From: Narcine bancroftii
Taxonomy: Eukaryota
Assembly (NCBI RefSeq): GCF_036971445.1
Contig: NC_091480.1
Span: 5,766,001 to 5,830,000 of the forward strand
Reading direction: 5' to 3'
Length of the DNA stretch: 64,000 bases
Position numbers and translations under genes: made by a program. Under the pieces are notes generated by a model. That model had not been told where the DNA came from and ran no database searches. It worked only from the letters and a program-made list of their open reading frames with translations. Of the stretch, positions 1,711 to 56,223 are shown piece after piece (position 1 is the first letter of the stretch; every line of letters starts with the position of its first letter).

Positions 1711-4700
1711 CTTCTCAGGAAACTCCTCACTGACTAAAGACATGATCAATGACGTTTTGCCAACTTGAGCTGCAGACACAGAGAGAAAAGTATTAATTGC
1801 CAAATTCAAGAAACAGCATTGTTCGCAACACAGTTTATCCTCTCACAAGAATTGCCTCAGTTTAGTCTGAGATATCTGACACAAAGATTGGTGGTGTTGT
1901 GGACAGTGAGGAAGATTACCGTAGATTAAAAGGTGACTTAGGAAGGCTGGAGGTGTGGGCTGAGAAATGGCTGATGGAATTTAATACAGATAAGTGTGAG
2001 GTGTTACATTTTGGAAAGGCAAATCTAAATAGGTCATATGCATTAAATGGTAGGCTATTGAGATGTGCAGAGCCACAAAGGGATTTAGGAGTTGTGGTAA
2101 ATAGTACCCTCAGGGCTGATACTCAGGTAGATGGTGTGGTGAAGAAGGCATTTGGAATGTTGGCCTTCATAAATCGTAGTATTGAATTCAAGAGTAGGGA
2201 GGTTATGATGAAATTGTACAAAGAATTGGTGAGGCCAAATTTGGAGTACTGTGTACAGTTTTGGTCACCAAATTATAACCATCTAAAGATATAAACAAAA
2301 GAGAGAGTGCAGAGAAGGTTCACAAGAATGTTGACAGGATTTCAAGGTTTGAGTTACAGGGAAAGGTTGTGCAGACTGGGGCTTTTTTCTCTGGAGCGTA
2401 GAAGATTGAGAGGGGACTTGATCGAGGTGTTTAAGATTTTAAAAGGGACAGACAGGGTAAATGTGGATAGGCTTTTTCAATTAAGAGTGGGGGAGATTCA
2501 AACTAGAGGGCACGGTTTAAGATTGAAGGGGGAAAATTATAAGGGGAACATGAGGGGAAATTTCTTTACGTAAAGGGTGGTAGGGATGTGGAATGAGCTT
2601 CCGACAGACGTGGTCGAGGCGGGATCATTGGTTACATTTAAGGAAAGACTGGATAGTTACATGGATAGGACTGGAGGGGTATGGACCGGGTGCTGTCAGT
2701 GGGACTAGGAGGGTGGGGTTTTGTTACGGCATGGACTAGTAGGGCCGAACTGGCCTGTTCTGTGCTGTAAGTGGTTATGTGGTTATATATCTCACACCTT
2801 GAACAACCACTTTCAATTCCACTCAGTTTCTCCAAAGATGGAGCTAAAGAACCTGCAGGTCCAAGGTATTGCGAACATTTTGTGGGATACGTGGACTTTT
2901 GTTTCAGTCCTCCTGTGGACATTCTCTCAGCTCTTTCTTGGATACATCAATGGTGCTGTTTCATGTAGTTATTCACAACTCGGTACTTTTGCTACTGATT
3001 GCCACTCTGTTCTCACTTTCACAGTCCGTCTCTGACCCTCCTCCTACCTAGATCCCTCTCAGGAGACAATTCAGTGACAAATTTTCATCAACAACCCAAG
3101 AGTTGTCTAAATTGTACTCTACCCGCTGCAGAGTCTATTCCACTTCTTCCATCACATCTATCCCAACTAACAAGAAGATGTCACCTTTCCTATTCCCTTT
3201 AGAATAGGAAAGGGAATCTCTCTGGCGGGGCAAGATCAAGGTTACCGAGTTAATAAATGGCCATCTGCTTTTTTGTTTGAAAATTTTATTTATTGAATCA
3301 TGATGTTAAAACATACAATAAATGAAAAATATACAAAATACATACATATTTTAGAACTAATCCCCTACAACCCCCTGCCCCCTTCCCTAACCCACCCCCC
3401 CCCCAACCTACCCAAAATGAAAAAAAGGAAAAAGAGATCATATAACGTCAAAATTTATCAGTTAATTCCCATGGTTTGGAGTGACACCACTACTGTGCGG
3501 CGAGGAGATTTAATAATTCAACCCCATATAATCCAAATACGGGCTCCAAGTTTAATGATAAAAAAGATAATTATCACGTAAATTATATCTTATCTTTTCC
3601 AATGGAATACAGGACCTCAACTCCAGATGCCATCTCTGAATATTCAAATCAGTCTCATTTTTCCAAGTAATTGCCAAGCCATCTGCTTGATACCTTAACG
3701 AGAGTGGTTATAGAGAGAGAACAAGAGGGGAAGAGAGAGAGACAGCAACAACATTGTGGAAGTGCAGAGATGTCGGAAATGCTCTCATGCTACACTTGCT
3801 TAGTGCTAATAGATCTTCCTTTTCATTGTAACTCTATCTCTTTTCTTGGCTGTATGAATGTTAGAAACAGCCTGTTGGTCTGCTCGTAGAAACACCTTCT
3901 CAGTGTTTTATGACACAAAGATGAATCTTTCCTGTCTCTATCAGAACTGACTGCATCTGATACATGTCTAGCCACCTGATGGACATTAAATGCACAAGTT
4001 GGGATATCATGTTACATTGGTTCTGGATGCCTTGCTGAAAGAAAGATGTCACTAACCTAGAAAGAAAGCAAAAAAGATTCACAAGGTACCAGTTCTGGAG
4101 GGCTCGAATTCTAGAACTGGAAGGTGGGATTCTTGGTGGAGGGGCAGGGGGAGTTTTGGACCTGAGCTTTTCTTCAAGGTGTAAAAAGCAGGCAGGCATC
4201 TGCATTAAATGAAAGGGTAGGGGGAGGAGTACAGACCAACAGACAATTGGGTGGCACAGTTTTGTTACCACAACATTGTTCCAGCATTACTGATCAGGAC
4301 ACAGGTTTGAATCCCGTGCAGTCTGTGTGTAGGTTCTCCCCAGGTCGGCATGGGTTTTCCCTGGGGGCTCTGGTTTACCTCCACCCTTCAAAAACAAACA
4401 TCAGGGGCTGTAGGTTAATTTGGTGGCTTCGGTTTGTGAGCTGGAAGGGCCTGTTATCATGCCGTATGCCCAAATTTAAACTTAATGTTTCTTAAAAACA
4501 CCATTAATTGGACATGGAGAAGAGACCAGGAGAACCATAGCAACTTGAGGGGTGACCTTAGAGATTTACAAAATTGCCCAGGGGCATAGATAAGAATAAT
4601 CACAGGAAAGATTTAAAAGGAAGAGCATTATTTTCCAAACAGAGATACATATATGGAATGAGCTGTCAGGGGCTGATACAATGATGACATTTAAGACATT

Positions 4701-7700
4701 TGTTCAGGTACATACTGTGGTATGCAAAAGTTTGGGCACCCTGCATGGTCAGTACTTAGTAACACCCACCCTGGCAAATATCACAGCTTGTAAACACTTT
4801 CGGTAGCCAGTGAAGAGTCTTTCTACTCTTGCTTGCAAAGGAGTTAAGGGTTATGGGGATAAGGCTGGAAAAGGGTACTGATGGTAGTGATCAGGCATGA
4901 TCTGTAAAATGGCGGTGCTGGCTCGACGGGCCTACTCCAGCTCCTGTCGTCTATTGCTTGAGGGATTTTCGCCCATTCTTCCTTACAAAAGGCTTTTAGT
5001 TCTGCAAGATTCTTGGGCTGTCTTGCATACACTACTCTTTTAAGGTCTATCTAAGAATTTTGATGACGTTTAGGTTGGGGGACTGTGAGGGCCATGGCAA
5101 AACCTTCAGCTTGCGCCACTTGGGGGTCATCCATTGTGGATTTTGAGGTGTGCTTAGGACCGTTATCCTGTTGTAGAAGCCAACCTCTTTTCATCTTCAG
5201 CTTTTTTTTAAAAAAGGAAAAAATAGATGGTGTGATGTTTGCTTCCAGAATTTGCAGATATTTAATAGAATTCATTCTTCCCTCTACCAGTGAAATGTGC
5301 CCCATGCCACCGGCTGCAACACAAGCCCAAAGGATGATCACTCCACCCCCGTGTTTAACAGTATTCTTTTCCGCACCTTTTTTTTTTTACCTTTGCACAT
5401 TGCGGCCAATAAGTTCTATTTTCACTTCATCAGTCCATAGGACTTGTTTCCAAAATGCATCAGGCTTTTTTAGATGTTGTAGTGAGCACGCAGGAAAGGA
5501 TTTCTTCTGATGACTCTTTCATGAAGATTATATTCGTTCAGGTTTTGCTGCACAGTGCATTGCCATTCGAGAGTCTGCTAAATCTTTTGCAGTTAAACTG
5601 GGGTTTTGATTCACCTTGCTAGCAATTCTACAAGTAGTCCTCTCAGAAAGTTTTCTTGGTCTTCCAGGCCTCGACTTGACCATTCTTCCTGTTAACTGCC
5701 ATTTCTTAATCACATTACAAACTGAGGAATGGCCACCTGAAAATGCTTTGCTATTTCTTTATAGCCTTCTTCTGCTACGTGGGCATCATTTATTTTAATT
5801 TTCAACAACCTAGGCAGCTGTTTAGCATGGCTGCAGATTGTTGGGACAAGGTTTGAGGAGTCATGAGATTTATAAAGCTTTGAAATTTACATCACCTGGC
5901 CTTTTCTAATGAGGACTGAGCAAGCTAACAAGTCCTAACAAGGTAATTAAGGTCTGAGACCTTGGTAAAAGTTATCTGAGAGCTCAAATCCCTTGGGTGC
6001 CCAAACTTTTGCATGGTGCTCTTTTCCTTTTCACTAAAACAAAAATAATACACTAATCTTGCTTAAAATGTTGAAAAGAATGTGTCATCTTTAACTTTAT
6101 AACTTTTGGGGTTCAGTTCATCTTCTACTCACTTAACTATTCACAGTAACAGAAGTTTTGACCAGGGGTGCCCAAACTTTTGCATACCACTGCAGACAGG
6201 AGAGGTTTAGAGGGATATGGGCCAAGTGCAGGCAAACAGGACACGCTGAAATGGGAAACTTGCTCAGCGTGGTTGAGTTGGGTCAGAAGCCTGTTTCCAT
6301 GGTGTACAGCTCAGTTTTCCTCTCTCCACAGCTGCCTGATTTGTGGCTATTTCCACCATTTCTTTTGCTTCAGACTTGGTACCTACCAGATCCTTAATTG
6401 CATACATGTGCCTGTTAACTACACAGCCCCAGAAAGTTGTTACACGAGTACCCTTGGTCTCCACTCTGTCACAGACATTCCCTCTCCTATGTGCATCTTG
6501 AAACTCTTGTTTCCTCAGTTGAATGATTCCCAGTTCTGATTTACAGTCACTAAACTAAAACAATAACCCTGTCCCTATCTCTTCCTCCCTCTCAGTCTGC
6601 AGATGCTGCGTTACTTGTTGCAATGTTTCTGAACTAATTCTGCATTAGAGACCCAGACATTAATCACTCCCCAAACACAAGCCATCCTCTCTCCCCTGTA
6701 GTTTACCAGCATTCTCAGTAGTGGAGAGGGTCAAGAACTTAAAATTCCTGGGTGTTAACATCTTTGAGGATCTGTCCTGGAGCGTCTACATTGATGTAAT
6801 CACAAAGAAGGCTCGCCAGCAGCTATACTTTCTGAGGTGTCTAAGGAGATTCGGTATGTCACCAAAAACTCTCGTAAACATCTACAGGTGGACCATGGAG
6901 AGCATTCTGGCTGGTTGCGTCACTGTCTGGTATGGAGGTGCCAAATTACAGAACAAAGATAAACACCAGAGGGTTGTTAATTCAGCCTGTGTCATCACAG
7001 GCACACCATCAAGGACATCTACATGAGGTGGTGTCTAAAAGAGCAGCCTCTATCCTCAAAGACCCCCACCACCCAGGTCATGCCCTCTTCACTCTGCCAC
7101 CATCAGGAAAAAGGTACAAGAGCCTGAAGACAAGCATTCATCGGCTCAAGGACAGGTTCTTCTCCACTGCCATTATATTCCTGAATAATCGATGAACTAA
7201 AGACACTGCCTTATCTTTATTGTTATTTTTTTATAACATGTAAGTTTGGGCTATGATGTTGCCACAAAACACCAAATTTCATGACTTGTTCATGACAATA
7301 AATCCCAATTCTGATCTCTTCACACATGTAAATCCAATCCCTTCACCCCTTTCCCTTTTCTCTCCCTCCCATCCTCACACCTTCCCTCCAATCCATCTTC
7401 TCTCTCCTCCAAACTTTGCCACCTTCTGCCCTCTGCTCCAGCACTACCCTTTCTCCTACAGTCTCCTCTCAATCCCTATCTGCTTCCCTTCCTCTCTCCT
7501 TCTAGGCCCCCTATGTCCCCTCCTTGCATCATTATTTCCTCCTTCCCTCCAGCCTTTCAATTCATCCCCCTCATCCCTCTGGCTCCCCTCCCCCTCGGGG
7601 GTCCCTTCCCCCCCCCCATCCCTCTGGGCTCTCCCCCCCCCATCCCTCTGGGCTCTCCCCCCCCCATCCCTCTGGGCTCTCCCCCCCCCAATCCCTCTGG

Positions 7701-8486
7701 GCTCTCCACCCCCCAATCCCTCTGGGCTCTCCCCCCCCCATCCCTCTGGGCTCTCCCCACCCCCATCCCTCTGGGCTCTCCCCCCCCCCATCCCTCTGGG
7801 CTCTCCCCCCCCCATCCCTCTGGGCTCTCCCCCCCCATCCCTCTGGGGCTTCCCTCCCATCCCTCTGGGGCTTCCCTCCCATCCCTCTGGGGCTTCCCTC
7901 CCATCCCTCTGGGGCTTCCCTCCCATCCCTCTGGGGCTTCCCTCCCATCCCTCTGGGGCTTCCCTCCCATCCCTCTGGGGCTTCCCTCCCATCCCTCTGG
8001 GGCTTCCCCCACCACCCCTTCTCTGTCCCCCACCCCCCTTCTCTGTCTCCTCCCTTCACTATCTACCCCCACTCACCTTCTCTGTCTCCTCCCTCCACTA
8101 CCTAGTCCCCTACCCCCTTCTCTGTCTCCTCCCTCCACTTCCTAGTCCCCCACCCCCCTTCTCTGTCCCCCACCCCCCTTCTCTGTCTCCTCCCTTCACT
8201 ATCTACCCCCACTCACCTTCTCTGTCTCCTCCCTCCACTACCTAGTCCCCTACCCCCTTCTCTGTCTCCTCCCTCCACTTCCTAGTCCCCCACCCCCCTT
8301 CTCTGTCTCCTTCCCCCACTTCCTAGTCCCCCACCCCCCTTCTCTGTCTCCTCCCTTCACTATCTACCTCCCACCCCCCTAATCTGTCTCCACCCTTTCT
8401 CCCACCCCCTCCCCGTCTTCTCTCCCCTCCTCCCGCGGCCTTTACTCACGTTCCCCCACCAGCAGGATCCTCACGTTGGCCCTCAT
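1711..8486 (-). CDS. RHOT1: Mitochondrial Rho GTPase (Miro), first two coding exons; gene presumably continues off the left edge
   Basis: Exon 8450-8486 (ATG, 37 nt, donor GTGAGT) splices to exon 1711-1769 (59 nt, tgcag acceptor, GTGAGT donor). Translation [32 protein letters not shown] contains the Miro P-loop. LVGEP and LVSEE residues favour RHOT1 over RHOT2, but the paralog call is uncertain. No third exon was recognised in 1-1710. Confidence 0.85.
1883..2786 (+). mobile_element. CR1 LINE, 5'-truncated
   Basis: RT C-terminus WAEKWLMEFNTDKCEVLHFG...LVRPNLEYCVQFWSP...RRRLRGDLIEVFKI. Tail (GTGGTTAT)2. Near-TSD ATATCT(G/C)ACAC at 1872-1882 and 2787-2797. Confidence 0.9.
3271..3677 (-). mobile_element. 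L1-clade LINE 3' end, 5'-truncated
   Basis: Minus strand encodes TWKNE...RWHLELRSCIPLEKIRY (ORF2 C-terminus), followed by an A-rich tail. 11-bp TSD GCCATCTGCTT at 3260-3270 and 3678-3688. Confidence 0.8.
4250..4480 (+). mobile_element. tRNA-derived V-SINE/HE1-like SINE (further copies near 20280-20520, 25570-25790 minus, 33340-33550, 33945-34180, 44420-44600, 62670-62870, 63125-63260)
   Basis: B-box-like GGTTYGAATCC, shared core TTCTCCCC..G..TGGGTTT.C.C.GGG.GCTC.GGTTTCCTCCCAC, and a CR1-like 3' tail. Confidence 0.75.
4715..6192 (-). mobile_element. Tc1/mariner DNA transposon (IR/DR type) with degenerate transposase
   Basis: Terminal repeats C(A/T)GTGGTATGCAAAAGTTTGGGCACCC at 4715 and inverted at ~6165-6192, TA on the left flank, inner direct repeat at ~5995-6013. 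Minus-strand peptides RPGRPRKLSERT, LWACVAAGGMG...LLQQDNGPKHTSKST and NLAELKAFCKEEWAKIP. Confidence 0.92.
6721..7312 (+). mobile_element. Rex1/Babar-type LINE 3' fragment (similar copies near 10070-10500, 13340-13640, 14740-15320, 31950-32270, 39105-39650, 43730-44320, 61670-62280 minus)
   Basis: ERVKNLKFLGVNI...KKARQQLYFLRCLRRFGMS...ESILAGCVTVWYG...KDPHHPGHALFTLPPSGKRY. Confidence 0.8.
7613..8400. repeat. Pyrimidine-rich minisatellite cluster in RHOT intron 1
   Basis: ~22-25 bp units CCATCCCTCTGGGCTCTCCCCCC that switch to CCATCCCTCTGGGGCTTCCCTC, followed by longer CCCCCTTCTCTGTCTCCTCCC units. Confidence 0.95.
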
Positions 8487-20300: not shown

Positions 20301-23300
20301 AGCAGTTAGTACAGCAATTGGGATTAGGGTTCGAATCCCTCACTGTCTGTAAAGAGCTTGTACATTCTCCCCATGTCTGCGTGAGTTTTCCTTGGGGGCT
20401 CTGGTTTCCTCCCATCCTCCAAAAAAAAATGTACCAGGGGTGTAGGTAGGTTAATTAGGCGGCATGGGCTCAGGGGCTGAAAGGGGCTGTTACTGTGCTT
20501 TATGTCCAAATATAAATTTTAAATTTAATTCCACACACATTTCACAGGCAGTGCTTGAATTTTATGTTCCATAAATAGGGGACTTTAACTGGTTGCCATG
20601 ACAGCCCTATCCCCAAGGTTAAGTTTATGAGATATGTCAGAGGTAAAAAATTTTTTGAGGTTAGTGGGTGCCTGGAATACATTACCAGGGGTGGTGGTGG
20701 CTGGTACAATAGGGATTTTTAAAAGACAGGCACATGGATGCAAGTAAAATGGAGAGTTATGTTATGGGTGTGAGGGAAGGAGGGGTTAGATTGCCTTGAA
20801 GTAGGCTTACATAGGTCAGCACAACATGACAGGCCAAAGGGCCTGCAGTGCTGTATTATTCCATATTTTATATATGTTCTATACTAGACACTCTCAACAG
20901 GGGCCATTCAGCACCCCCCTGGGGGCCACAACATTTTTAAGGGAGGGGGGCAGGGACTAAAATCATATTTTAAACATAGTCAGAAGGAGCCAGAACTTCC
21001 CTGCTTCACAGGGAAGGGGCTCCATAAATTATGAGTAAAGTCCTAAGGTGGCCATTGCCAAAACAAAGTTAAGAATGGCTGTTCTAGACCATCTGATCTT
21101 CAGAGTAAATACAGAATTCAAATGGATGCAAATTGAATTAATTGAGCAACATACATGGTGATCAACATGTATACTCACACACACTTCAGTGACGACTTAC
21201 AAGCTGACGATCAACCATGGTCTTGTCTTTAACAATGCTGTAGAGTTGATGCTTCAGGACAATAGGCGGAAGCGAATCGTCAAACAACTTGCGAGGAAAC
21301 AAGGATGCCAGAAAAATCAGCGCAGATTTGGTGTCATTTGGCACACCTATGAAATTGCAAAGACAAAAAAATGACATTGTTGAGAGTTTACATACACAAT
21401 TATGAAAGGCATGGACAAGATAGAGGTAGGCAGGTGGCTTCCATTGGTGGGGGAGGCCAGAACTAGGGGACATAGCCTCAAGATCCAGGGGAGTAGATTT
21501 AAGATGGAGATGAGGAGGAACTGCTTTTCCCAGAGGGCAGTGAATCTGTGGAATTCACTGCCTGTTGAAGTTGTGGAGGTGACCTCAGTAAATATATTTA
21601 AGTCAAGCTTGGATAGATTTTTTACATAATAGGAAAATTAAGGAATATGGGGAAAAGGCAGGTAGGTGGAGATGAGTCCATCATCAGATCAGCCATGATC
21701 ATATTGAATGGTGGGGTAGGCTCGATGGGCCGGATGGCCTATTCCTGCTCTTATTTCTTATGTTCTCATGTTTTGCAAAAAAATATAATAATATGACTGA
21801 ATCGATCTAATAGAAAGCAACATGCTTCACTCAGAATGCTGACCACCAAGAAAGGTTGTTTCCCCATGGTGAGAGTCCAGGAAAAGATTTCAGGATTGAA
21901 GGATGTCCACTTAGAACAGGGCATTTCTTCAGCCAGAGGGTGGAGAATCTGTTGCCACAGGCAGTTGTGGAGGCCAGGTCATAATACAGAGATTGATAGG
22001 TTCTTGATTAGACAGGGTATCAAAGGCTATGGGGAGAAAGCTGGGCAGTGGGGCTGAGTGGGGAAATGGATCAGCTCATCGGGGTGGAATCGATGGAACA
22101 AAAATAGGTTATTCAACCCATGTCTCTTATGAACTTCACGATTCAAGAAATTCAATTACTTTTCATGATTTTAATGTACAGGGGCATAACCAAATTATCT
22201 GGATATCAAGCTCAAGTCCACGTGGATTTGTGTAATTTAAAGTTTACTTGTCACATTATACCTGGTACAACCAGATGGGTTCTTCTGGGAGCAGTTTCAC
22301 ATTTTACAGTCAGATAAAATAGGACAAGATCACAATTAGAGCACAGATTTACTTCAAAAAAGGTCAATTAGCACCAAGCAAGGGCAGCATGAGCACTCCT
22401 GTGGGGTTCATTCAGGAGCCTGATGGCTGCAGGGGGAAAATCTGTCTTTATGTCTGTCACCCATTAGTGTTGGATCCAAGTTGTTTGCAATGTGGTAGGG
22501 CCTTTAGTATAGGTCTTTAACTGGATTTTCAGAACAATCAAAACCATTTCTGGTGCCAACATTCACATCACTCGAGTGGCTGCTCAGTTTATAATTTGCC
22601 TTGTGGGGTTTGATCTCCAAAGATTAAATCTAGCCACTGCCTGTACAAGTGACTAATGCAAGTTCACAAAAAGGAATTACTTTTCTACACATTTATCTAG
22701 CCCAGGGTGGCCAACCTTTTAATTTAGACATACAGCACGGTAAGAGGCCACAAATCCTTCCCACCCTAGTAACCAACAACCCCAGTAGTTGTCGTGGGCC
22801 GAAATGGCCTGTTACTGTGCTGTATGTCTAAATTAAAAATTAAGATGTTGGCCATCCCGAATTCAAGCCCCTTCAATGCAAAGGAGAGTTCTCAAACAAA
22901 AACATTTATTAAGGCTTGGAGAGGGTAAAGAAGGTGGGGGGTGGATTTAAACAATGGAATTCCAGCTGAAAATAGAGCCTTTTCTAAGACATTTTTGGAA
23001 CAAGGACATAGCTGGGAATTCCAATTTTAAATGTCCATCCTGAACTGAGGTGTAGACCCTAAGACATGGAGCAGAAATAGGCTATCCAGCTCATTGAGGT
23101 ATTACATGAATGGGGTTAAAATCGAGGAGTCACATGATGGAGTAGTGGCCGGACGGTGAACTCCAGCCCTCTCCAGAAAAGTCGGGAAAAACAAGAGAAA
23201 ACACAAAGGCACAGAAATAAAAGTTACAGAAAAGTGAGTATAAAGGTGGAAAGAAGATGGCGACAAAAAAAGAAAAGTCGAAAGCAACGGTAAGAAGAGA

Positions 23301-26213
23301 GGAAGAGAAGACAAAGGAGGAAAAAGGTGAAGGCCTTACCTGTCCGAAGAGGCCCGCTGCGGAGAGAGAAACCCGCTCCCTCAGGTCGGTAAATAATGGA
23401 CTACAAAAATGGCTCGCAGAGCCGAGCAAAAGTGTGCAACCGCGCATGCGCGAAACTTCGCGCATGCGCGATGCGAATGAAAAAAAACACACCGACGGGA
23501 GGGGGGACCAGCTGGGGAGTCGATCTCCACAGCCGGCAACGACAGCTGCAGAACACCTGCAGCAAGAAGAGACCACAGAAGACAATAGAAACAAGAAAGA
23601 AGAGGAGGAAAGGGCAACAAAGAAACAACAGATGGTCAACCCAGAGGAAGAGGAAGAGGAAGAGTATGGTGAAATAGAAGAAGAAAAGATAGGCAAGGTA
23701 AAGGATATACTTGCTCTTATTAAAGGATACATGGAGTCATTTAAAGAATGGCAAACACAGGAATTTAAGGATTTAAGAAAAAGAATAAACAACACAGAAG
23801 AGAAAATAAATAAAATGGAGATGACCTTAACAGAAATGGGAAAGAAAATGGACAAGATGGAAGAGCGGGCAGTAGCAGCAGAAATGGAGGTAGAAGACTT
23901 AAAAAAGAAATTGGAGAAATCTAATAAAAAAACTAAAGAGACACAAGAACTACTAGCTCAAAAAATAGATACAATGGAAAACCATAACAGAAGAAATAAC
24001 ATAAAGATAGTGGGCCTTAAGGAAGATGAAGAAGGCAAGAATATGAGGGAGTTTATAAAAGAGTGGATCCCTAAGACCCTAGGATGTCCAGAACTACAGC
24101 ATGAAATGGAAATAGAAAGGGCACATAGAGTATTGGCCTCTAAACCACAACCACAACAAAAACCAAGATCTATTGTAGTAAAATTCCTAAGATATACTAC
24201 AAGAGAAAAGGTACTGGACAAGACAATGGAAAAAGTAAGAGAGGGCAACAAACCACTGGAGTATAAAGGGCAAAAAATCTTCATTTATCCAGATATAAGT
24301 TTTGAACTCCTAAAGAAGAGAAAAGAGTTCAATACAGCAAAGGCGATTTTATGGAAGAAAAGGTATAAATTTATACTAAAGCATCCAGCGGTATTGAAAA
24401 TATTTATTCCAGGACAACAAAACAGACTATTCTCGGATCCAGAAGAAGCACGAAAATTTGCAGAACAATTACAAAAATAGACTGAGGGAGGAAGACGGGT
24501 AATGAGAGTTAAAATGATCACGACTGATATGTATGTGGGTAAAGACAAAAATAGACTGAGGGATGAAGACGGGTAATGAGAGTAAAAATGATCACGATTG
24601 ATATGTATGCAGGTAAAGAGGTATAAGAGTGAATAGAGACAATGAGCATACATGAATGTATCTGTACTTAGAGGAAAATATAGATAGTATAGACAAGAAT
24701 TAATAAGGGAAGGTAATGGAATAGAGAGAATAAGGAGGGAATTAAAAGAGGGACCTTTGTGACATATGAAAAGTGAAATCTTTTCTGGGGGAGGCGGGGT
24801 GGGGGGAAATAGCGGTCACTGCAAAATCAGTTGACGCTTGCGAGTGGATTCGCAAATCCAAATGGAGAGGGGAGATGTGGTTGTCCGACAAGGGATAAAG
24901 GACAACTCAGGAGGTGAAGGGGAGATTGGGGATAAATAAGATAGAAATAGGAGAATAAGGAAAATGTTAGATGTTGTAGGAATGTTGTCTTATAAAGAGT
25001 TGAAAATAAGAAAACAGAAATGGAAAAGGAGGAAAGGTAATGATGGAAAAACGGAAAGAGAAGATAAACAAAATATAAAAGGGCTACGCTGAACTATATG
25101 TCTTTAAATATTAATGGAATACATAACCAAATTAAAAGGAAGAAACTACCAAATTTAAATGAATAAATGTATTCCATTAGAAAAAATAACATATTGGTTA
25201 AGAAATAATATTGAAATATTCGAACAAGTATAGGAGCCTTACATTAAATACAATAGCGAAAACCTACCGGGGACAAACATTACCTAAGTTGATGGAAGGA
25301 GAAGGAAAGAAAAGAATGGACTCAGTAGAATTTCTGGTGTAATTTTGTTGAATGACAACATTGTCTGACTGGCTTAATGCAACCTAGATTGTATACCTAA
25401 AATGGATGAGAGGGGGGGGTGGGGGGGTGGTTTGGGAGGAAAGGGGAGGGGAGAAAAAGTCACTGTATATGTGTGAAAAAGAAATAGTGTATATCATGGC
25501 TAATGTGATTTATGGTGTGAAAAATAAAAAAATTAAAAAAAAAAAAAATGGGGTTAAAATCACATTATTTTTTTTTTGGACATTCAGCACAGTAGCAGGC
25601 TCTTCCTGTCCATGAGCTCGTGCTGCCCAATTACACCTAATTGACCTACAACTCCCAGTATGTTTTGAAGGGGAGAGGGAAACCAGAGCACAGGAAGAAC
25701 ATACAAACTCCCTACAGACAGTGTGGGATTCAAACGCTGATCACTGGCACTGTTACAGCATTGTGCTAACCACTTTACTAACCGTTCTGCAACACAGCAA
25801 ATCCATTTTGCACCTCAACACAGTTGGGCTTTAAGCCACACTCCAGTATTTTCAAAGTTGTCATCATTGAGATTAGTTATTGTTTATTTCAGTTTTACTT
25901 CATGACCCAAATTTAAATTTATCCGCTGTGTAAAGGAGTGCATTCACATCATCAAATTGAGGCCCCCTGATGACAGTCCTCTAACTTAACTTCCCCTATT
26001 ATGGTCAAAGATGACCAACATTGAATGAGTGCAAGGATTTAGAAAATTGCAGAGGCAGAGGGGTAAAACTATAGAAGGAATTGAAAAAAGAGGCTTACCT
26101 TCACTCTTTTCTGTTTCTTTATTATCCAATGAATTAAATACATTTGTGGATCCTAACTTTCTCCTCTTAACCTGCCAGAAAATGTCTGGTATCTGGTTTC
26201 TTTTCCTGTTCAT
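11352..26213 (-). CDS. STK19: STK19/WHR1 winged-helix DNA/RNA-binding repair factor, complete CDS, 262 aa
   Basis: Six coding exons, all GT-AG and phase-consistent (789 nt): 26099-26213, 21201-21346, 18231-18466, 16217-16314, 14446-14593, 11352-11397. Motifs LFPRKLFDDSLPPIVLKHQLYS, QLVNAGVLTVRDIGSWWLAIPGAGRFVKYFVKG, YHVHDIIGA and CIPTTSGTLLRL match STK19. Probable non-coding exon ends at 26763 (GAG/GTAGGT on minus). AATAAA on minus at 11059-11064. Confidence 0.96.
11690..12060 (+). mobile_element. Unclassified interspersed non-coding repeat (copies near 12510-12810, 19350-19580, 34225-34330 minus, 42330-42720 minus, 51250-51460)
   Basis: Shared GGATCTGGAGCTC...CTGAAGGGACTCTCTT core. Several copies end in CATGACAATAAAA. 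Confidence 0.65.
13833..14124. mobile_element. Fold-back Penelope-like (PLE) non-autonomous insertion with 14-bp TSD
   Basis: Two inverted copies of the AATGCTGGAGAAACTCAGCAGGTC... repeat. TSD AAATCAGAAAATGT at 13819-13832 and 14125-14138. Confidence 0.75.
14953..15090. repeat. 46-bp tandem triplication inside a Rex-type fragment
   Basis: CCATCATCCCTCTACAGGTGTATCACTGAAGGCATCCTGTCATGGT starts at 14953, 14999 and 15045. Confidence 0.9.
16410..17370 (+). mobile_element. CR1 LINE 3' fragment (other degenerate CR1 pieces near 18650-19020, 21395-21770, 21855-22130, 40845-41150, 49510-49900)
   Basis: KKWQMKYNIGKCMVMHFGRRN and a CR1-type 3' UTR. Confidence 0.8.
16642..16812. mobile_element. hAT-type MITE with 8-bp TSD (second copy ~22703-22859)
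   Basis: TIR CAGGGGTGGCCAA / TTGGCCACCCCTG. TSD CCCTAAAG at 16634-16641 and 16813-16820. Confidence 0.88.
23257..24480 (+). CDS. L1-type ORF1 protein (coiled coil, RRM, CTD), 407-aa open frame; true start may be a later Met
   Basis: Coiled-coil region, then ENHNRRNNIKIVGLKE, EIERAHRV, PRSIVVKFLRY and KIFIYPDIS.ELLKKRKEF, which are typical of L1 ORF1p. Confidence 0.88.
   Translation: MATKKEKSKATVRREEEKTKEEKGEGLTCPKRPAAERETRSLRSVNNGLQKWLAEPSKSVQPRMRETSRMRDANEKKHTDGRGDQLGSRSPQPATTAAEHLQQEETTEDNRNKKEEEERATKKQQMVNPEEEEEEEYGEIEEEKIGKVKDILALIKGYMESFKEWQTQEFKDLRKRINNTEEKINKMEMTLTEMGKKMDKMEERAVAAEMEVEDLKKKLEKSNKKTKETQELLAQKIDTMENHNRRNNIKIVGLKEDEEGKNMREFIKEWIPKTLGCPELQHEMEIERAHRVLASKPQPQQKPRSIVVKFLRYTTREKVLDKTMEKVREGNKPLEYKGQKIFIYPDISFELLKKRKEFNTAKAILWKKRYKFILKHPAVLKIFIPGQQNRLFSDPEEARKFAEQLQK
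24471..24618. repeat. 74-bp tandem duplication at the ORF1 stop / inter-ORF spacer
   Basis: ACAAAAATAGACTGAGGGA.GAAGACGGGTAATGAGAGT...GGTAAAG starts at 24471 and 24545. Confidence 0.85.
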
Positions 26214-26762: not shown

Positions 26763-27389
26763 CTCGCTCGGCCGCCGCACCGAGTGACGCACTCGCTCGC
26801 ACCGCGGCAGCTGACGTAAACTCTCCGTGGCGCCCGACGCATAGGGATGACGTTGACCGGTGTCTTCAAACAGGGCCGCGAAGTCCGACAGACAGAATTG
26901 AGTCATTAGCGTCGAGGTACATCACAAATGAGCTTTAATCGCGGAGTGGGCACCTGTTCACCCTCCCCCCCCGTGACTCAACTATGTATAGAGCACGGGC
27001 TCTTTGTTTTAGGTTGGATAATGTGTCATTAGAATGTTCTCGAATCAATTTACCGCCTGTTGTGGACGCTCTGTCCAGACGGATGTTGGGGACGGACCGG
27101 TTTCCGGTATCGCCCCGCTCTGGCTCTGGGCCCAGAGTCGCTGCCGTCGTTTGGTCACCTACGCGATAGCAAAGGTCCGGCGTATTGAAAGGGGCCCGGG
27201 TATTTCTGTGAGAGAAGGTGGGCGTCGAGCGTTACCTGAGACCGCCATCTGTGCTCAGGCGGGAGTCAAACCTGAGGCAACAGGTAGTCCGTTCACAAGA
27301 TCCTTCCGGCTCGGGAATTGGAGAAGGTGCCCCGTTCCAGGAGGGGTGGGAAAGAGTGAGGGGCATCACTGGCACCAAGGCACTCTGAG
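26763..27389. promoter_or_regulatory. CpG-island bidirectional promoter with first exons of STK19 (-) and DXO (+)
   Basis: CpG-dense region bounded by outward-facing splice donors (26763 on minus, 27389 on plus). TGACG CRE half-sites near 26785, 26812 and 26848, TGACTCA near 26974, TTTCCGGT near 27101. Confidence 0.75.
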
Positions 27390-27441
27390 GTAAGGTGGTA
27401 AAGTTGAGGGGTTCGCTTAGGGTGCACTTCCAACTTCCCAA

Positions 27442-28096
27442 GGCGCCCCTTGGCAGGGCCAGGCAGCCACGCTGGGCGCCCCTTGGCAGGGCCAGGCAGC
27501 CACGCTGGGCGCCCCTTGGCAGGGCCAGGCAGCCACGCTGGGCGCCCCTTGGCAGGGCCAGGCAGCCACGCTGGGCGCCCCTTGGCAGGGCCAGGCAGCC
27601 ACGCTGGGCGCCCCTTGGCAGGGCCAGGCAGCCACGCTGGGCGCCCCTTGGCAGGGCCAGGCAGCCACGCTGGGCGCCCCTTGGCAGGGCCAGGCAGCCA
27701 CGCTGGGCGCCCCTTGGCAGGGCCAGGCAGCCACGCTGGGCGCCCCTTGGCAGGGCCAGGCAGCCACGCTGGGCGCCCCTTGGCAGGGCCAGGCAGCCAC
27801 GCTGGGCGCCCCTTGGCAGGGCCAGGCAGCCACGCTGGGCGCCCCTTGGCAGGGCCAGGCAGCCACGCTGGGCGCCCCTTGGCAGGGCCAGGCAGCCACG
27901 CTGGGCGCCCCTTGGCAGGGCCAGGCAGCCACGCTGGGCGCCCCTTGGCAGGGCCAGGCAGCCACGCTGGGCGCCCCTTGGCAGGGCCAGGCAGCCACGC
28001 TGGGCGCCCCTTGGCAGGGCCAGGCAGCCACGCTGGGCGCCCCTTGGCAGGGCCAGGCAGCCACGCTGGGCGCCCCTTGGCAGGGCCAGGCAGCCA
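27442..28096. repeat. Perfect 33-bp GC-rich minisatellite, ~20 copies, DXO first intron
   Basis: Unit GGCGCCCCTTGGCAGGGCCAGGCAGCCACGCTG, period 33, no variants seen. Confidence 0.98.
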
Positions 28097-30561
28097 TTGA
28101 CTGCACTGGGCACTAGGTGGCCATTTCCAAATGTCCAAAATGGAGGACACGTTGGCAGAGGTCCCTCTGAGGTGTACGTGTGTGCACGCGCGCAATGGAA
28201 ATCGTGTGTGCACATGCAGGCACGTGTTTCTTTCCACTCACATACCACTTTAAGTAATCCCAATGCTATTGGTGCTCTGTGATTAGTAAGGGATTGCTTA
28301 AGGTGGTATGTGAGTGGGAAGGGAAGGTTGGGAAGCACTGCTCTCGACCCAATTGTTACTGAAATATTTTGCTTGACAAATTGTCATTGGCCCATTTCCT
28401 TTGGAGTTGTGAAACTGTGCACATAACAAGTCAATTAGGTACAATTAAAACAGTGGTTTTAACCAATCCCTTACTAATCACAGAGCACCTAAGGCATAGG
28501 AAATGCTTTTGCAATAACTGTAATAACATTTATGTGGTTATGACTTAGAATGCAGTTAACAACTCTGTAAGCAGCCCCTATCCAGCTGGTTTGAGACATT
28601 TGATAGCAACTTTTGCTCTTTTGGAAAGAAGCTCTCTGGACAAGTGAGACAGCTGGACAGCCAGTTTTAAAAGACAGCAGAACACTTGGGATGTGATAAT
28701 CCATTCAATGAGTTCCTCATTTCCAATTAGTAAAGACAGAGAGAGAATTCCAGTATTATGGTCATTAAGACAAGATCCAAATATCAGGCTGTGGGTGCAC
28801 AAGAGGAAACCTGGCCGCACATGCTGAAATTAACAGGTAAGTGCCCTTTCTCCTCCTTGATTTGCCCTCCATTTGGGGGTATAGGCCTACACCCCTAAAT
28901 GGAGGACAAATTAATGTCTGACTCACAGTGGTGCTGGACAGAGGGCTTAAATGCTGGACTGTTCACCCTAGATGTCCAGATGTCTGGCCACTTAAGGTTT
29001 GCCTGCCTTCAGCAGTGCAAACACCGAGTACCGCAGCAGGAGGCAGGCTGCTGACTATGTTGCCAGGTGGGTCATTGGGACTAGCAGAATATTGGTTAGC
29101 GCACAATATAGAAGGGCCAAATAGCCTGTTTCTCTGTAGGTTCTGATTCCTGTACTTAGACTGAGCCTGTAGCAGTGGACCTCAGCTGAGGGTGGGGAGC
29201 CCATGAGCTCTCTGACTGGATTAAGATCACACTTTTCAGCTGCACATTCCATTGCTGAATCACTTCATAAACTCTGTTCCCTTATCATGAAAACCATTAG
29301 AGAGCTTGGTGAAACCACACTGGCCATCAACAGGTGACAAGAGTTTTGAGTCTTCCATTTCAAATGACTTGTTCCACCAGCCTCTCTAGACCGTTTCAGA
29401 AACTTATGACATCCAACGTGAATAAAACTGAGCGAGTATCCCTGAACTGAACCAAGACTCTAAACTCTTTTAGAGCCTATATAATCTGAGGTGTTGTTCC
29501 TCAAAGTTGGACAAAAAAAATGAGAAGATATTCAGAATCTTTTTCCCGGGTAAAAATGGAAAATGCTACAGGACGTGCATTTAAAGTGAGAGGGAGAAAG
29601 TTTAAAGAACTGAGTTTTTAATCACCATGAAAGTAAAAACACAATGCTGGAGAAACTCAGCAGTTATGGACAAAATGTGGGCATTTTTGTGTGGGTACCT
29701 GTCCACTTTTTGTCCATACCTTGATAAAAGGCTCAAGGCCAGAATGTTGGTTAAGTATCTTTATCTTTGCTGTATAAAGGACAAAATACAGTGGAAAAAC
29801 TTTGCTTTCCATCCAGGTAAGTCAATCTATATTCACATACTACACTACAAAATAAAACATAGCTGCAGAATAGCAGAGAAAAGGTTCAGTTAATGTTCAG
29901 CCAGCATCATTGTGCAAATGGGAGGTCCGTTCAATGGCTTGAGAACAGCGGGGAAGAAACTGTCGTTGAATTTGGTGTTTTCATGCATGTGTATCTTCTG
30001 CCCTGTAGTTTTTTTTTTTACACAGATTGATGGGTGCCTGGAGTAGGCTGCCAAAACTCGTGGTGGTGACAGTAGCATTTGAGAGTCTTTTAGACAGACA
30101 TGAATGTGCAGGGGATACAGGGATATAGATCATGTGCTGGCAGAAGAGATTTGGTTTAATTTGGCAGGATTTTCAACGCAGACCTTGTGGGCCGAAGGGC
30201 CTGTTCCTGTGCTGCTGGTTTATGTTCTATGTTTTTATTAAAAAACCTTTAAAAATTCATGTCCTGTTTGTGGACCAGAACATTGATGATTACTGTCACT
30301 GAAACTGTTCATACCAAACCTCCATGACTCAACTACTTATTTAACAATAATAGTTATTTATTTTAATATTTGTATACAAGTACTGTGTGTGTCTGTCGAT
30401 ATCTCTCTCTTTTTGTCTCTGTGTGTGTCTCTCTATCGTTTGTGTTAATTCTGTATGTGTGTTTGCAGCGTGTTGCAAAGAGGACTGTACTTGTATAATT
30501 GGATGAACTTGATCTGAATATTTCTTTTTGTTGGTGTGTTGTTTGACCAGGAAGTGAGAGG

Positions 30562-46234: not shown

Positions 46235-56223
<9,989 letters not shown>

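Follow-up and report, generated by a model that had tools for sequence, protein, structure and literature searches.

Structure of the element in the window

The window analysed comprises 64,000 nucleotides of the electric ray Narcine bancroftii (contig NC_091480.1, positions 5,766,001 to 5,830,000), and it contains, at 23124..25546 on the forward strand, a derivative of LINE-1 (L1) flanked by perfect 15-nt direct repeats (Table 1). The initial annotation, made from the sequence alone, had attributed to this element a perfect 15-bp target-site duplication (TSD), a poly(A) tail and an open 407-aa ORF1, all of which were confirmed. The identity of ORF1 is settled by the Protein Data Bank, in which residues 195-401 match human LINE-1 ORF1p (2ykp, E 1.2e-12); in Pfam, ORF1 gives only a sub-threshold match to Transposase_22 (E 0.033). 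The closest named proteins come from Narcine bancroftii, with 88-90% identity over 66-76% of the length. The window copy carries two private amino-acid changes in ORF1 (24219 and 24361) and lies 8 nt away from its nearest sister among the copies read.

Table 1. Parts of the element and its flanking repeats, in window coordinates
Feature	Position	Strand	Remarks
Left TSD	23109..23123	+	15 nt, 100% identical to 25547-25561 (repeat family D14)
5' UTR, common to element and autonomous parent	23124..23256	+	presumed internal promoter
ORF1, 407 aa	23257..24480	+	charged N-terminus, coiled coil, RRM, C-terminal domain
CpG-rich palindrome within ORF1	23441..23470	.	fold z -4.7
74-nt tandem duplication across the ORF1 stop	24471..24618	+	also in the parent; single unit in some copies
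Inter-ORF spacer, ~600 nt	24481..25079	+	collinear with the parent, without captured foreign sequence
ORF2 relic, first 26 codons (endonuclease)	25080..25157	+	start codon ATG changed to AGG
Junction of the 3,590-nt ORF2 deletion	25157..25158	+	one A fits both sides
ORF2 relic, last 42 codons	25159..25287	+	stop at 25231-25233
3' UTR	25288..25546	+	G-rich tract, AATAAA at 25523, A-tail at 25535-25546
Right TSD	25547..25561	+	15 nt

An endonuclease start of about 25 codons, deprived of its start codon and joined to the C-terminal tip of ORF2, had also been proposed, and this description was borne out by two relics, in which the N-terminal 26 codons, beginning with AGG, are joined out of frame to the C-terminal 42 codons. 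No domain was recognised in either relic by the Pfam search. The CIPLEK tip that the annotation had noted in L1 fragments at 3271-3677 and 54152-54905 is indeed present there, but neither fragment represents the parent of the element, and both belong to more distant L1s: the fragment at 54152-54905 is just 80% identical to the element over 88 nt, and that at 3271-3677 has no blastn match to it at E 1e-3.

Other repeats occur in the same window. The 3' flank of the element, 25567-25790, resembles another interspersed repeat, probably a SINE (loose ends in several runs), and a MITE-like stretch of ~150 bp at 22705-22857 has ends that are inverted relative to each other and encloses a 34-nt inverted repeat. 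Long GC-rich tandem repeats at 27232-28215 and 7253-8245 yield spurious ORFs.

Copies of the element in the genome

Exact pattern matching found 1,236 genomic matches to a 37-nt word spanning the junction and 1,854 further matches to a 27-nt word carrying the parent's letter at one site, with 0 matches for either reversed control; these counts, at least 3,090 together, are lower bounds. The loci read numbered 140, comprising the first 60 listed of the 37-nt set and the first 80 of the 27-nt set, all on a single contig (C1); their choice through exact words biases this sample toward young copies. Full-length copies, which start within 20 nt of the position corresponding to 23124, account for 124 of the 140, and TSDs of at least 10 nt (median 16) were found in 120, every one of them distinct. 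The family is multi-copy, and the element was mobilised as one piece, bearing TSDs and an A-tail. The expectation that many copies would have the same deletion junction between different TSDs thus held, and this combination identifies a non-autonomous family.

The copies of the 37-nt set have a median identity of 99.05% to the one in the window, those of the 27-nt set 97.98%. ORF1 is open over at least 390 aa in 61 of the 124 full-length copies (40/55 in the 37-nt set and 21/69 in the 27-nt set).

The autonomous parent and the deletion

A word taken from the endonuclease start in undeleted form matches the genome at 2,839 places, and the first 40 of these loci were read as the parent sample. 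Most of them are 6.0-kb L1s, whose identity to the element is 93-96% to either side of the gap; positions 1-2034 of the element align to the parent at 93-96%, and the 3' end at 93-95%. An ORF2 of at least 1,260 aa with reverse transcriptase and endonuclease domains is present in 16 of the 40 loci, and both ORFs are intact in eight. Compared with this parent, the derivative is without 3,590 nt of ORF2, with 1 nt of microhomology (A) at the join. The suggestion of an independently arisen non-autonomous family is thereby substantiated, the family being derived from an L1 resident in the same genome. Matches to the 3' side in undeleted form number 10,597, and a 34-nt word from the common 5' end has 5,764 exact matches, so that the derivative constitutes roughly a quarter of the copies that reach the junction from the 3' end and, by estimate, about half of those that keep the 5' end.

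In 27 copies of the parent (from L101-L140), codons 1-125 of ORF1 carry 20 non-synonymous and 2 synonymous shared changes, a ratio that differs from that of private changes at p 0.017, hinting that N-terminal ORF1 change in the autonomous parent is adaptive.

A lineage separate from the parent

Variable sites order the copies as a ladder leading from parent-like to youngest, with 36 stepwise differences from end to end, and the six youngest copies are 0-6 nt apart. At element position 2074, 137 of the 140 copies have G, whereas all 38 parent matches have T. The ORF2 start codon has been lost (G at 25081) in 133 of the 140, as against ATG in all 34 anchor-matched parent loci of the 40. Four copies that retain the ATG are among the oldest and carry 28-36 of the 36 old alleles, so the decay of the ORF2 relic came after the deletion. 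The stop within the C-terminal relic is present in 116 of the 140 copies.

Runs of parent-type alleles occur in 9 of the 124 full-length copies, with four clear patches (L044, L055, L172 and L183), and some of the other runs may be ancestral alleles. Mosaics bearing patches or whole heads of parent-type sequence (these four, together with L257 and L266) were observed, and may have arisen through template switching or gene conversion involving derivative and parent. Derivative and parent copies were also seen nested within one another or as head-to-tail neighbours (L065, L137/L138, L114, L185).

Mode of spread

The most probable reading, to which we assign a probability of about 0.8, is that a young, self-perpetuating ORF1-only LINE-1 family, founded by one 3,590-nt deletion, is likely to spread through its own ORF1p and the ORF2p of the parent. 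One such deletion in a resident 6-kb L1 gave rise to the derivative, which, to judge from known L1 biology, would be transcribed from the retained 5' UTR. The ORF1p would coat its own RNA in cis, and the 3' end and A-tail that the RNA has retained would allow it to recruit the parent's ORF2p in trans, with insertion of the new copy by target-primed reverse transcription. Because the RNA is short, at 2.4 kb, it would usually be copied to its 5' end, so that the promoter is preserved in most new copies, each of which could act as a source in turn.

The L1 ORF2p is the likely candidate for mobilisation in trans, as suggested indirectly by the intact parents and by a target preference, C-A/C-T-pyrimidine then AA, that is the same in family and parent sites (143 copies). 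Family sites (n=115) have C at -4 in 73 cases, T at -2 in 89 and AA at 0/+1 in 99 and 96, and the corresponding numbers in parent sites (n=28) are 15, 22, and 26 and 24. Such agreement is expected if a single endonuclease serves both. The target of mammalian L1 is TT/AAAA, which differs from the preference of the ray elements.

Selection on ORF1

Changes in ORF1 were counted in 115 non-mosaic full-length copies, after 16 truncated and 9 mosaic-looking copies had been dropped; the palindrome (300-365), the poly-E tract and the 74-nt tandem were masked, and CpG changes were excluded. Private changes give a dN/dS of 1.18 (149 non-synonymous, including 9 stops, and 45 synonymous), and changes present in at least four copies give 0.93 (26 and 10; p 0.53 against private), so that dN/dS shows no signal of constraint with 115 copies, nor did it with 68. 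The coiled coil holds a concentration of shared changes (13 non-synonymous and 6 synonymous in 291 nt), with a non-synonymous excess over non-coding DNA at p 0.009. The RRM and C-terminal domain have few such changes (3 and 2 in 486 nt), a scarcity that is not significant (p 0.11).

The reading frame behaves differently from the amino acids. With the palindrome and homopolymer runs excluded as slippage-prone, 29 disabling changes are private (9 stops and 20 frameshifts) and 0 are present in at least four of the 115 copies (Fisher p 0.011); the Poisson test gives p 0.047 against a baseline of shared non-coding indels and p 0.005 against the private rate. Stops alone are not significant (p 0.12-0.36). 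The proposal that the family keeps its own ORF1p consequently holds for the reading frame but finds no support as amino-acid constraint.

These data bear on an unlikely alternative, according to which the family is self-perpetuating and non-autonomous, with ORF1 as a passenger that has stayed open through youth while both proteins come from the parent. A dN/dS near 1 and a ladder of only about 36 changes in its entirety are what this account would lead one to expect, as are possible small clades carrying a 31-nt frameshift in the palindrome. Three copies with this frameshift (L171, L189 and L254) have a rare allele in common, so they may descend from a source whose ORF1 was broken at the N-terminus; such copies would still encode a 284-aa product from the next ATG in frame. 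Against a passenger ORF1 stands the count of 0 stops or non-slippage frameshifts among the 36 changes present in at least four copies, where 3-5 would be expected. Of the ORF1 indels found in several copies, moreover, 5 of 6 preserve the frame, compared with 7 of 27 private indels (p 0.016), and over the same period the ORF2 relic lost its ATG and acquired both a stop and a frameshift that 7 copies carry. Selection on ORF1 is thus only partly supported. As stops alone are not significant and the 31-nt frameshift may have left offspring, a need for ORF1p in cis is graded as likely only.

Origin of the common junction

Human L1 SpIREs, which the cited source describes as dead-end products of splicing within the 5' UTR or ORF1 (PMC5860796), resemble the ray family in comprising many copies with one internal junction. 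It is nevertheless very improbable that the ray copies are likewise dead-end products, with splicing of parent RNA, or a template jump on it, recurring at one site. The single junction common to all copies and a 3' break that comes after AG would fit such a process, but the removed piece ends in AC..AG or CT..GA on the sense strand, with GT..AG on neither strand, and the copies have in common alleles without a parent counterpart and form a ladder of their own. Since the relic decayed only after the deletion had occurred, the copies cannot have been generated over and over from parent RNA. Identity with SpIREs was rejected on the ground that the junction is not at GT..AG splice sites; unlike these dead ends, the ray family combines a junction lacking canonical splice sites with a lineage of its own.

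A single post-insertion deletion, which the junction counts and TSDs contradict for the window copy, a segmental duplication or an assembly artefact can be practically dismissed, since nothing favours them for this family (8 of 54 matches of a second family do lie in one array with 17-kb spacing), and since 120 TSDs are distinct and the 3,590-nt skip is also present in contigs of two other runs (short side 23 and 29 letters).

Relation to known elements

HAL1 (half-L1) of placentals and marsupials is, in the passages cited, a non-autonomous element for which ORF1p in cis is thought to be needed (PMC5753468, PMC3627910, PMC13756887); it encodes ORF1p only and arose several times in mammals (PMC5753468). 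The ray family is likewise a non-autonomous, ORF1p-only derivative of L1: it encodes an L1 ORF1p, has lost the ORF2p of L1, and is a multi-copy unit with TSDs and A-tails. Given that its parent is a resident L1 of the same genome, its origin is independent of mammalian HAL1. Descent from the latter was considered and rejected, the parent being a 93-96% identical L1 of the same genome and the nearest named proteins coming from the electric ray.

Rat RNHAL1 offers a close parallel, for its cited description gives a deleted ORF2, ORF1 only, a 5' part sharing about 98% identity with active L1 and about 7,500 copies, and holds it to be still spreading (PMC2241872). Both families are thus L1-derived by ORF2 deletion, encode ORF1 only and number in the thousands. 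Unlike RNHAL1 as described there, the ray family comes from a ray L1 (a 93-96% identical parent in the same genome), which makes its origin independent, and keeps readable relics of both ORF2 ends. Guinea pig HAL1 is reported in the cited passage to have kept ORF1 for 29-44 Myr (PMC3627910), whereas the ray family has diverged by only 1-2%, and no constraint on its amino acids can be seen as yet. Further comparison is offered by parts of PMC4859970 and PMC8535693.

HeT-A, HAL1 and Ag-Sponge have been described, in the passage cited, as ORF1-bearing bipartite LINEs (PMC5786205). HeT-A (Jockey clade) and Ag-Sponge (CR1 clade) are similar to the ray family in that 5' and 3' parts of a LINE are joined by an internal deletion with ORF1p kept; they differ in belonging to other LINE clades and to insects, and HeT-A is telomere-specific.

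No report of HAL1-like elements in cartilaginous fish (sharks, rays) was found in the literature covered, outside which most subscription journals lie. The ray element represents a real HAL1-type family, young and abundant, whose origin was independent and whose parent is still living; the kind itself is already known. It extends to cartilaginous fish a half-L1 way of life that the cited passages describe from mammals. Because intact parents coexist with near-identical young derivatives, the two form a ready pair for testing ORF1p in cis, that is, for asking whether cis-made ORF1p lets an ORF2-less RNA escape L1 cis preference, a role that has until now been deduced mainly from old mammalian families.

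More tentatively, and with the odds against it as a whole, the ray family may be an active non-mammalian half-L1 beside its living parent, about level with it in promoter-bearing copies and trading patches with it. In this picture, the coiled coil of its ORF1p would change faster than other parts of the element, as that of a parasite competing with its parent for ORF2p, and palindrome flips and deletions would retire copies with age.

The ORF1 palindrome and a second deletion family

The palindrome at 23441-23470 is a hot spot for 18-, 31- and 32-nt deletions and for loop inversion among the copies. Its loop occurs in both orientations among close sisters, with five loop alleles each accompanied by its reverse complement, and the two orientations number 11 and 8 in parent copies; the loop flips are possibly a sequencing artefact. 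Palindrome indels rise from 3 of the 34 youngest copies to 18 of the 31 oldest, and the 31-nt skip is also present in contigs of other runs. The arms resemble an NRF1-type site.

A second, separate ORF2-deletion family from the same parent (L124, L125, L211-L230) was observed, with 54 exact matches to its junction word, which points to repeated origin of such families within one genome. Its members measure about 2.7 kb, and their join is in frame, leading to a 192-aa mini-ORF2. This family is older, a palindrome deletion is present in 12 of 12 full-length copies aligned, and the array of 8 matches with 17-kb spacing lies on C1.
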